A DNA stretch of 42,911 bases from Candidatus Omnitrophota bacterium (GTDB lineage Bacteria > Omnitrophota > Gorgyraeia > 2-02-FULL-51-18). Positions 317 to 42,911 of this stretch are shown here, piece by piece. Under the pieces are notes generated by a model, which had not been told where the DNA came from, searched no databases, and was given only the letters and a program-made list of their open reading frames with translations. The stretch's first letter is position 1. Every line of letters starts with the position of its first letter. Location of the stretch: assembly GCA_023248025.1 (NCBI GenBank), contig JAHFFI010000002.1, forward strand, positions 1 through 42,911. The letters are read 5' to 3'. The translations under genes were made by a program, and so were the position numbers.

Positions 317-346
317 AAATTTTATTGACCCAAAGATAGAAAAATT

Positions 347-419
347 TAGCCCCAAGGGGAGTCGAACCCCTGTCCCTACCGTGAGAGGGTAGTGTCCTAG
401 GCCACTAGACGATGGGGCC
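347..419 (-). tRNA. tRNA-Glu (anticodon CUC)
   Basis: The reverse complement reads GGCCCCATCGTCTAGTGGCCTAGGACACTACCCTCTCACGGTAGGGACAGGGGTTCGACTCCCCTTGGGGCTA. It folds into a cloverleaf with a 7-bp acceptor stem, anticodon stem CTACC/GGTAG, loop CTCTCAC (anticodon CTC) and T-loop GGGGTTCGACTCCCC. It closely resembles canonical bacterial tRNA-Glu. CCA is not encoded. Confidence 0.9.
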
Positions 420-446
420 AAGTTCGCATTAGCCAAGCAGGACACC

Positions 447-12863: not shown

Positions 12864-12911
12864 GGAAGCAATTTTAGCACAAACAGGCTAACCTGTCCCT
12901 TTTTCGCCATT

Positions 12912-13330
12912 CCGGACCGGGTCCGGGGGGTGCTTCCGACAGAGCCTGACTCGTAGGCGCCCTTGCCAGCTCCCGGACCCCGGAAGTGGTCCTTTGGGTC
13001 GACGTCTCAATTTCCCCTCCGAGGAAATTGAGACTCCGTTAAAGTTTGCGCGTGTGTAAGAGTAGGCTTCCATGGCGCGCAAACTTCAAAGGCGCCCCCA
13101 AGGACCACTTCCGGGGCCCTGTACCATTCGCTAATGTGTGTTCTATTTAAGACCTAAGAGAACCCGACGGGTGGCGAAGGGAATGCTCTATTTGCCCGGA
13201 GCCGCTAATAGACGGCGAGTCCGCCAGAGGACGGATCCGTCCACAAATCGCTCGTGCGATTTGATGGCGGAGACAAATAGACCTCGTCCTTTGACAGGCC
13301 CCGTCGGTTACTTGGATTAATGGGTCCGAA
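12912..13330 (-). repeat. Structured repeat element, copy A (sense is the minus strand)
   Basis: Its reverse complement is collinear with copies B, C and D and contains all conserved blocks plus the 52-nt Y-shaped insertion. It lies between the divergent dusB and typA genes, in the same sense as dusB. Confidence 0.8.
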
Positions 13331-13445
13331 AGAACCTCCTCCGGAAGCTAGCGACACTATCCGGTGGTTGAGTATTTGGGAAATATTGATTAATATGACA
13401 ATTAATTTGCTTATAGGTTGAAAATTATGGTACCTTGTACGACTT

Positions 13446-16015: not shown

Positions 16016-16036
16016 CCAATCCGATAAAGCTCTCCC

Positions 16037-16457
16037 AGGCTCTATTCAATAACCTAACCGCCGGGTCCTGTCAAAGGACAAGGTCTATTTGTCTCCGCCA
16101 TCAAATCGCACGAGCGATTTGTGGACGGATCCGTCCTCTGGCGGACTCGCCGTCTATTAGCGGCTCCGGGCAAATAGAGCATTCCCTTCGCCACCCTCGG
16201 GTTGCCTTGGTCTTAGATAGAGCACACATTAGCGAATGGTCTAGGACCCCGGAAGTGGTCCTTGGGGGCGCGTTTGTCGTTTGCGAGCCATGGAGACCCA
16301 CTTTCACACACGCGCAAACTTTAACGGAGTCTCAATTTCCTCGGAGGGGAAATTGAGACGTCGACCCAAAGGACTACTTCCGGGGTCCGGGACCTGGCAA
16401 TGGGTGTTCTTCGGGAGCGGGCAGGCCCCGTCGGTTACTTGGATTGATGGACCCGAT
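16037..16457 (+). repeat. Structured repeat element, copy B (full length, plus sense)
   Basis: Both terminal inverted repeats are present (16054-16070 and 16422-16438, with their extensions). It also carries the 24-bp internal helix and the 52-nt insertion. Confidence 0.8.
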
Positions 16458-16461
16458 AATA

Positions 16462-16490
16462 GTGCCAGAGGGGTCTGACCCCTCTGGCAC
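16462..16490. terminator. Perfect 12-bp GC-rich hairpin, possibly a bidirectional terminator
   Basis: The stem GTGCCAGAGGGG/CCCCTCTGGCAC has the loop TCTGA. It sits between the end of repeat B and the 3' end of the convergent 74-aa gene. The flanking U-tracts are weak. Confidence 0.45.
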
Positions 16491-16531
16491 CTGATGAAAA
16501 CTGCGTTTTCCTTTATTTATGGGCGATGCAC

Positions 16532-16756
16532 TTACCCAGGTGAGCGTCTGGGATCCTCGAGCAGGTCCTGGATCTCGAATTCGGCCGCTCCAAATTCACG
16601 GGCGACTCCGATAAGCTCGGGGCAGTTCTCGTACTGCTGCCGCTCAAGAGCTTCTTTGAGATAGAGCAGGGCCGTCAGCTTTATTGGGTGTTTTTCCACA
16701 AGGGTTCTCCTGTTGTTATTTGAGTTAAAACTCGCATAGGGCATTGTTTTGATCAT
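16532..16756 (-). CDS. Hypothetical 74-aa protein
   Basis: An AGGAGG RBS lies 5 nt upstream of the ATG. I do not recognise the family. Confidence 0.55.
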   Translation of the reverse strand: MIKTMPYASFNSNNNRRTLVEKHPIKLTALLYLKEALERQQYENCPELIGVAREFGAAEFEIQDLLEDPRRSPG

Positions 16757-24541: not shown

Positions 24542-24579
24542 ACCGCCACTCGTCGGAAGTGTTAGGCGACATCGTTGCA

Positions 24580-24937
24580 ATAGTACAGCCATTGCTGTAA
24601 CCGCCGGGTCCTGTCAAAGGACAAGGTCTATTTGTCCTCGCCGTCTATTAGCGGCTCCGGGCAAATAGAGCATTCCCTTCGCCACCCGTCGGGTTCTCTT
24701 TGTTTTAATAGAACTCTCATTAGCGAATGGTCTAGGACCCCGGAAGTGGTCCTTGGGGGCGCGTTTGAGATTGGCGAGCCATGGAAACCTACTCTTACAC
24801 ACGAGCCAATCTCAACCGAGCGAGAGATTTCCTCGGAGGGGAAATCCGAGCGTCGACCCAAAGGACTACTTCCGGGGTCCGGGACCTGGAAATTCCCCCT
24901 CTGGACAGGGTATTGGTTAGTGGGTATAATCACTTGT
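24580..24937 (+). repeat. Structured repeat element, copy C (plus sense, lacks the 52-nt insertion, diverged termini)
   Basis: It is collinear with copy B. Hairpin 1 is completely re-paired (TTGAGATTGGC/GCCAATCTCAA). Confidence 0.8.
24902..24930 (+). promoter_or_regulatory. Putative sigma70 promoter for the peroxiredoxin gene, embedded in the 3' end of repeat C
   Basis: TGGACA (24902-24907), a 17-nt spacer, then TATAAT (24925-24930). A GGAGG RBS lies at 24947-24951 and the ATG at 24960. Confidence 0.5.
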
Positions 24938-24959
24938 TATTAATGGGGAGGTAAAATTC

Positions 24960-42649: not shown

Positions 42650-42669
42650 ACGAAGACAGTTAAATACAA

Positions 42670-42911
42670 ATAGTCTATCAATCCGCGTAACCGACGGGGC
42701 CTGGCTCGGGCGCGCCCTATTTGTCCTCGCCCTTACGGGCTCCGGGCAAATAGGGACCGCACCACTCGCCACCCGTCGGGTTGTCTGGGTCTTAAGATAG
42801 AACACTCTATTAGCGAATGGTCTAGGACCCCGGAAGTAGTCCTTGGGGGCGCGTTTGTCGTTTGCGAGCCACGGAAACCTACTTTTACACACGAGCAAAC
42901 GACAATCGAGC
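42670..42911 (+). repeat. Structured repeat element, copy D (plus sense, truncated by the window end)
   Basis: It is collinear with the first ~240 nt of copies B and C. It begins about 20 nt beyond the nuo -35 and runs in the divergent orientation. Confidence 0.8.

Follow-up and report, generated by a model that had tools for sequence, protein, structure and literature searches.

What is the long non-coding sequence that recurs in four intergenic spaces of a single bacterial contig, and how did it come to be there? The contig, analysed here over its entire length (42,911 nt, "the window"), is a complete 42.9-kb contig of a metagenome-assembled genome (MAG) of Candidatus Omnitrophota. A first-pass annotation, made from the letters alone, had described the four segments as a previously undescribed, multi-copy, non-coding family that looks inserted (mobile) and has no partner gene nearby, and this description stands up to closer analysis. 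We conclude that the segments probably belong to a new, lineage-restricted family of non-autonomous elements resembling miniature inverted-repeat transposable elements (MITEs), with an unusually elaborate foldback interior and no coding capacity. The traits that the family shares with MITEs are dispersed intergenic copies, small size without a transposase, terminal inverted repeats (TIRs) and presence/absence polymorphism, and we take these up in turn.

Repeat finding, alignment and nhmmer all recovered four homologous intergenic segments, and no additional copies, in the window. The nhmmer envelopes (12906-13336 on the minus strand; 16028-16464, 24571-24945 and 42670-42910 on the plus strand; E-values of 1e-50 to 1e-154) place them essentially where they had first been reported, and the conserved blocks listed at that time are present in our alignments. 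Copies A to D, as we call them in order, have flanking genes without a common function (dus/typA, rluB, pfkB/ahpC and nuoA). B and C are co-directional with their upstream gene, and A and D occupy divergent sites, in the case of D opposite nuoA. Copy B begins 13-22 nt past the rluB stop codon and ends just ahead of a 14-bp hairpin, copy C has a -10-like TGCAAT on one side and the ahpC ribosome-binding site on the other, and copy D is truncated by the end of the contig. An ENA contig (ERZ27296333; 29,284 bp) spans the copy D locus, where the spacer measures 608 bp, and carries no recognisable mobility gene beside it.

To look beyond the window we used the plus-strand open frame of copy C as a proxy for element DNA in protein-cluster searches. 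Only three clusters (P0121-P0123) matched among 5.8 billion, the same three emerged from an exhaustive search of 1.84 billion representatives, and they yielded copy E (L003, 1289-1625) and copy F (L004, 1 to ~345), both on ENA metagenome assemblies; E lies antisense to both of its neighbours. Three or four more copies are known only through spurious translations of open reading frames (ORFs), namely P0121 and the cluster members P0126-P0128, the last three on NCBI contigs of 6-19 kb. The minus frame of copy C matched no cluster, and two further candidates from the exhaustive representative search (P0124 and P0125) were rejected as unrelated repeat proteins. The family is therefore real and present in independent assemblies, and it is very narrowly distributed. 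Copy B had no blastn match in plasmid and phage collections, and the exact motif ATTAGCGAATGGT...CCCCGG had none in GTDB species genomes or viral contigs (IMG/VR). A shorter form of that motif gave two matches in JGI metagenomes (L001 and L002), which we rejected as chance once they had been read. The terminus motif and the helix-arm motif were likewise without matches in viral contigs. Against Rfam 15, the only match above gathering threshold was tRNA-Glu, and scans of B, C, E and F at permissive thresholds produced only far-sub-threshold matches to generic hairpins; the check for a described family, HEARO included, that the first-pass annotation had proposed thus returned no confident match.

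Evidence for insertion comes from syntenic loci. The next relatives of the window's TypA are at most 80% identical, and all are from Omnitrophota MAGs. We compared the TypA loci of related MAGs, among them L005, L006 and L008, which preserve the gene order GreA-Dus-TypA-RluB...PMT-PfkB-AhpC-CCA; L006 and L008 are distant (75-78% TypA identity). The dus-typA spacer measures 91-167 bp in L006/L008 versus 582 bp in the window, where copy A makes up 431 bp; the pfkB-ahpC spacer measures ~50-80 bp in L006/L008 versus 418 bp in the window, where copy C makes up ~375 bp. Because the relatives' syntenic spacers span 50-170 bp against 418-582 bp in the window, copies A and C are insertions. Presence and absence at orthologous dus-typA and pfkB-ahpC sites are therefore both on record, in relatives too distant for exact empty sites to be read. 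The long dus-typA spacer of L005 contains a cold-shock gene and not the element. Searches with nhmmer (178 kb) and with a covariance model of the element's second foldback module (R1; 208 kb), including ~165 kb of the relatives' loci, found nothing beyond the known copies.

Copy C also altered the site that it entered. In the relatives, ahpC has its promoter 22-37 nt ahead of the ATG. In the window, copy C is flanked by TGCAAT on its left and by the conserved GGAGG ribosome-binding site on its right, indicating that the insertion separated the ahpC promoter from its gene. The diverged 3' end of copy C contains an outward-facing, near-consensus sigma-70-type site, TGGACA-17-TATAAT, 30 nt upstream of the ahpC ATG, and this end reads as a predicted replacement for the displaced promoter. 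Further marks of repetition come from the assemblies themselves: the MAG contig ends inside copy D, a Logan contig starts inside copy C, and repeats typically break assemblies. The 5' end of copy E is directly preceded by part of another copy in inverted orientation (L003 1232-1288), comprising the 3' arm of module 2 and the sequence beyond it; this arrangement suggests that one copy inserted into another or that copies were rearranged with each other.

The element spans 375-430 bp and consists of ~35-bp TIRs, two foldback modules (~95 and ~160 nt) and, in A and B, a 52-nt nested insertion; overall, palindromes are nested within one another, with inverted termini on either side (Table 1). The consensus 5' end is CGGRYCCATYAATCCAAGTAACCGACGGGGCCTG. 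The first-pass annotation had described an imperfect terminal inverted repeat, and this is borne out by the near-perfect pairing of B and by B only, as the 3' terminus is 30-57% identical between copies. TIRs are intact in one of the five full-length copies (B, which alone keeps a near-perfect 3' TIR), and recognisable fragments persist in A, C, E and the copies behind P0126 and P0127; in A the 5' TIR is intact and the 3' TIR is reduced to CAGGCTCTGTCGG and GGACCCG.

Both modules are intricate. In six of six copies the 5' core CCGACGGG pairs with CCCGTCGG inside the element and so closes module 1, which leaves the 5' core two possible partners, the internal site or the 3' terminus. The closing helix, which reads CCGCCGGG/CCC-TCGG in B, has one mismatch there and lacks one base; A, D, E and F each form eight clean pairs. 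The helix encloses a TCTATTTGTC/GGCAAATAGA stem and an apical GCCG/CGGC hairpin, and in E and F the module forms a perfect 22-bp stem. The insertion in A and B was found as originally described. In module 2 the 24-bp helix reported earlier reaches 28 pairs with its extension and does enclose two hairpins. The motif ACACACG is, like ATTAGCGAATGG in the linker between the modules, invariant and mostly unpaired. Copy B folds at -205 kcal/mol versus -150 +/- 7 for shuffled sequences (z = -7.7), and its reverse complement at -185 kcal/mol.

Table 1. Positions in the window of the four copies, of the parts of the element as they occur in copy B, and of the promoter-like site in copy C.
Feature	Position	Strand	Description
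Copy A	12906-13336	-	Full length with 52-nt insertion; between divergent dus and typA; nhmmer E=4e-149
Copy B	16028-16464	+	Full length with 52-nt insertion; nhmmer E=3e-154
Copy C	24571-24950	+	Full length without 52-nt insertion; nhmmer E=2e-121
Copy D	42663-42911	+	Most divergent copy; cut within module 2 by contig end; nhmmer E=4e-50
5' TIR of B	16036-16070	+	Outer half degenerate; core TAACCGCCGGGTCCTG
Module 1 (foldback 1)	16058-16201	+	RNAalifold helices 1-3 and 5
52-nt three-way insertion	16094-16145	+	Tip of module 1; A and B only; closing stem CCGCCA/TGGCGG and two hairpins
ATTAGCGAATGG in linker	16228-16239	+	Invariant in 6/6 copies; predicted unpaired save last two bases
Module 2 (foldback 2)	16238-16394	+	33-nt arms (28 pairs); inverted repeat, helices 6-9, covariance model R1
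Hairpin 1	16274-16324	+	Enclosed by module 2 arms
Hairpin 2	16329-16359	+	Enclosed by module 2 arms
3' TIR of B, CAGGCCCCGTCGGTTACTTGGATTGATGGACCCG	16422-16455	+	Reverse complement of consensus 5' end, 1-2 mismatches
Promoter-like site TGGACA-17-TATAAT	24902-24930	+	Outward-facing; 11/12 consensus matches; in diverged 3' end of copy C

The copies are mosaics of one another. Across A, B and C, module 1 is 99-100% identical and module 2 only 83-91%, and module 2 of C, E and F is 96-97% identical. The 5' terminus is 97% identical between A and E and 56-76% between B or C and the others, and the 3' tail falls to 30-57% among all copies, E versus F included. Such mosaic identities point to segments having been exchanged between copies, by recombination or gene conversion, everywhere but at the ends; purifying selection alone would be insufficient to produce them. 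Termini decay faster than cores.

No recognisable mobility gene was found close to the element. We scanned ~40 window ORFs with Pfam, and every matching one is a housekeeping gene (the nuo operon, partly scanned, ABC transporters, TypA, RluB, Dus, GreA, AhpC, the CCA enzyme and two-component genes among them). In agreement with the first-pass annotation, no transposase, reverse transcriptase, TnpB, IscB or recombinase was found in this set, and the element has neither an ORF of its own nor a partner gene within the 43 kb. An ordinary miniature non-autonomous element with a very stable transcript would account for the TIRs, the nested or partial copies, the mosaicism through recombination and the decay of the ends. 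Under the MITE-like reading, the ancestral element would have carried ~35-bp TIRs (CGGRYCCATYAATCCAAGTAACCGACGGGGCCTG and its complement) around two foldback modules and would have inserted into intergenic DNA of one Omnitrophota lineage, presumably through a transposase encoded elsewhere in the genome and acting in trans. After insertion, the exchange of segments between copies by recombination or gene conversion would keep the cores alike, and the termini, no longer needed, could decay or be co-opted, as the 3' end of copy C may have been as an ahpC promoter. The helices might be maintained by a constraint on the single strand, most simply a transcript with effects on mRNA processing or stability, or by palindrome correction at the DNA level.

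Several observations weigh against this reading. No target-site duplication is reproducible, and none is present at A or C, either by eye or against the relatives' spacers. The flanks of B offer a weak candidate, ATAAAG on the left and ATAATAG on the right, and an alternative, CCGATAAAG at 16021-16029 and CCGATAATAG at 16451-16460, that partly overlaps the conserved terminus. Exact motif scans of viral contigs, GTDB genomes and JGI metagenomes found no autonomous element with the same termini. Copies E and F are 96-100% identical in the core and unrelated over most of the 3' tail, a contrast that needs gene conversion or an unusual 3'-end mechanism. Finally, the interior is more elaborate than that of a typical MITE and, together with signals of structural conservation, hints at a constraint beyond transposition. 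In an alignment of the six copies A to F, double changes occur in 7 of 87 pairs, five of the seven in hairpin 1, a number that none of 500 shuffles reached. Paired columns also vary less than unpaired ones (31/172, 18%, versus 41/119, 34%; p = 0.002), in a comparison biased by the choice of structure.

These structural signals bear most directly on an alternative in which the element would be a mobile functional RNA. Much as in bridge-RNA-type systems or in HEARO/IscB omega-RNA copies that lack an ORF, the transcript would be the partner of a protein whose gene lies at another site and would act as a guide, a scaffold or something like a ribozyme, and the "TIR" would serve mainly as an RNA closing helix. 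We consider this unlikely; the following points speak for it. On the six-copy alignment 97.7% of cells pair, and sliding the helix partners abolishes the double-change signal. The change from TCTATTTG/CAAATAGA to CCTATTTG/CAAATAGG in D and the G-C, G-T and A-? series at columns 250-369, both pointed out in the first-pass annotation, were reproduced. Its claim of compensation in hairpin 1 is true of three perfect and differing versions (C/E/F, D and A); copy B, by contrast, is a chimera with a D-type 5' arm, an A-type 3' arm and three mismatches. The sense strand folds better than the antisense by 6.6-13.5 kcal/mol in all five full copies, an advantage that we assign almost entirely to module 2. 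Among polymorphic columns, counted in a strand-neutral way, G-T pairs outnumber A-C pairs by ~5-7 to ~2-3 overall, and in the shared helices of module 2 non-Watson-Crick pairs are G-T in five columns and A-C in none; such an excess is a suggestive, not a decisive, sign of selection on a single strand. The mostly unpaired motifs ACACACG and, in the linker, ATTAGCGAATGG are invariant, the core is conserved while the termini decay, and the 5' core can pair with either of two sites, all of which a functional RNA could account for.

Set against this, 67 of the 87 pairs never vary, in only six closely related sequences, and the modules are 77-100% identical between copies, so that invariance carries little weight. 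Within module 1, a 12-bp segment pairs perfectly in E and F but has five uncompensated changes in A, B and C; two of these are A-C mismatches, which contradicts the earlier statement that non-Watson-Crick pairs are G-T only. Template switching at the DNA level can also yield perfect multi-base differences between versions of a palindrome. The recombinant hairpin 1 of B is mismatched, no promoter or terminator accompanies the copies, and their orientation to neighbouring genes is inconsistent. No Rfam model matched even permissively, the element is missing from the relatives' loci examined, and no candidate partner gene was seen: among the 6-10 copies inspected, no effector of an omega-RNA or guide system (IscB, TnpB, IS110) lies in the window, beside E or F, or beside D on the 29-kb contig. 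The evidence that the fold works as RNA is thus suggestive, and a more specific version appears to us decidedly unlikely. In that version the two-module fold would be a functional RNA that accompanies a mobile element or constitutes one. It would represent a member, devoid of an ORF, of a guide, scaffold or ribozyme system not yet described and dependent on RNA; the protein partner would be encoded at another site in this Omnitrophota genome, and the choice of the 5' core between two pairing sites would belong to the mechanism. Two inferences of the first-pass annotation lose ground accordingly. Selection on an RNA is weakened by the closeness of the six copies, the confinement of five covarying pairs to one hairpin and that of the strand asymmetry to module 2. 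A new large non-coding RNA class sits poorly with the absence of homologues in 178 kb (nhmmer) and 208 kb (covariance model), of promoters or terminators of its own and of a consistent orientation.

A second alternative holds that the host keeps the copies as cis-acting RNA or DNA modules, such as mRNA stabilisers, processing sites, insulators or promoter donors; roles of this kind have been proposed for Correia, ERIC, BOX and REP elements. Copies B and C, which follow a stop codon directly, in sense orientation and ahead of any terminator, would be co-transcribed with the upstream gene, the 28-pair helix would make a plausible substrate for a double-strand-specific RNase, and the promoter-like end of copy C lies immediately ahead of ahpC. 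The flanking genes share no function, however, orientation and position vary from copy to copy, and relatives lack the element at these loci. MITE insertion, moreover, commonly leads to single copies being co-opted, and we regard a general cis-acting role as quite improbable.

Least probable among the alternatives that we weighed, and in our view very doubtful, is movement through a single-stranded DNA intermediate, in which a PATE-like derivative of an IS200/IS605-type or other HUH system, or a hairpin-targeting element, would have its fold read on one strand. Such a route would be compatible with the strand asymmetry and its tolerance of G-T pairs, with the lack of a clear target-site duplication, with the position of the ends of B and A, 5-20 nt from a flanking hairpin, and with the AATAGT found directly 5' of C and D and directly 3' of B. 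No flank motif, not even a tetra- or pentanucleotide, is common to all copies, however, and the copies are too few for a test of insertion-site or replication-strand bias. The element also has long inverted termini, which do not fit a PATE; to our knowledge, IS200/IS605 elements lack long terminal inverted repeats.

The remaining readings can be dismissed briefly: a small protein gene (frames are broken in A and B, each copy's ORF is broken differently, no Pfam family matches, and 4 of 4 amino-acid differences between the frames of C and E are non-synonymous), a cis-regulator of one gene class (neighbours and orientations differ), a transcription unit with its own signals (no consensus promoter or terminator accompanies the copies), and a group II intron, ribozyme or retron non-coding RNA (no model matches and no reverse transcriptase gene is present).

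Some of the loci that we inspected carry features of their own. Downstream of copy B, a perfect 14-bp GC-rich hairpin (GTGCCAGAGGGGTC/GACCCCTCTGGCAC; 16461-16492) separates the convergent rluB and a 74-aa ORF (16532-16756, minus strand), and the dus-typA spacer of L006 contains a hairpin with a similar GGGGTC-GACCCC core. On ENA contig ERZ27296333, two ORFs that match no Pfam family, one of 504 aa and one exceeding 3,489 aa, flank the copy D locus upstream of nuoA; giant ORFs are typical of Omnitrophota. A c-di-GMP-I riboswitch aptamer (L004 453-542, plus strand; 65.5 bits) lies ~110 nt downstream of copy F, and a second one, of the GGC variant, was found at L010 5101-5185 (plus strand; 62.4 bits).

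Other observations concern DNA away from the copies. At the start of the window, positions 129-164 and 296-323 hold two additional partial copies of a tRNA 3' half beside tRNA-Glu(CTC) (346-420, minus strand); they are 83-96% identical to the tRNA gene, one direct and one inverted, and may have been left by an integrated element, as att-like remnants, or represent pseudo-tRNA fragments at the start of the contig. Two related Omnitrophota MAGs have in common a repeated motif of ~70 nt (L010 4953-5026, 5750-5823 and 6488-6561; L012 640-704 and 6159-6223) that begins TGCTATAAT, contains GCTTCCCC...GGGGAGCC and has no Rfam match above gathering threshold, and is a candidate small RNA or leader family. 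Finally, an A/C-rich interspersed repeat of the 'CCAAAT' type, ~60-100 nt long and unrelated to the element, occupies three intergenic sites of L006 (1-103, 13626-13759 and 20233-20296).

If the MITE-like reading is correct, the family is one more lineage-specific set of such elements, in a poorly studied candidate phylum, and explains why the contigs of this MAG break where they do. Copy C then offers a clear example of an insertion between the promoter and the ribosome-binding site of ahpC, with an end that now reads as a replacement promoter. Should the fold instead prove to be an RNA with a trans-encoded partner, the family would matter more, and the present evidence falls short of that. 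Before their identification as guide RNAs of IscB, HEARO repeats had a similar appearance.

How, then, does the family compare with known systems? Like OLE, GOLLD, ROOL and raiA, it is several hundred nucleotides long and is predicted to fold in a complex way. Those RNAs usually occur once or a few times per genome or phage, across many taxa and with extensive covariation, whereas the element described here is confined to one organism or population, looks inserted and matches no Rfam family. The HEARO/IscB omega-RNA (RF02033) is closer, as a large structured mobile RNA element with possibly many copies per genome; according to Weinberg et al. in 2009 and later IscB work, HEARO is reportedly ORF-less in some of its many copies. 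Its covariance model did not match our element even at E<=10, and the Pfam scan of the window revealed no IscB, HNH or RuvC gene.

The bcr1 repeats of the Bacillus cereus group (bcr/bcr1) resemble the element in being interspersed and lineage-restricted and in having a cruciform-like RNA structure with compensatory base changes and a stability that varies by copy (PMC3184786). They differ in their size of ~155 bp, their 5-bp direct repeats and their demonstrated transcription, whereas our element is 2.5 times larger, belongs to another phylum and is known from sequence alone. Bacterial MITEs in general are up to ~400 bp long, have TIRs and no transposase, and form long stem-loop folds (Delihas 2011, PMC3184786). 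Compared with examples such as the Neisseria Correia/NEMIS elements, the element stands apart in having no reproducible target-site duplication or known cognate insertion sequence, two multi-branch foldback modules in place of one long hairpin, and no similarity to the collections searched. It is like them in being non-coding, intergenic and multi-copy, in its TIRs and in its absence from the orthologous sites of relatives, as well as in a very stable stem-loop transcript and promoter donation by single copies (both predicted in our case) and in a size within ~400 bp (PMC3184786). The category into which the family would fall is thus already known, both from MITEs of up to ~400 bp and from MITE-like repeats with compensatory RNA structure such as bcr1 (PMC3184786).

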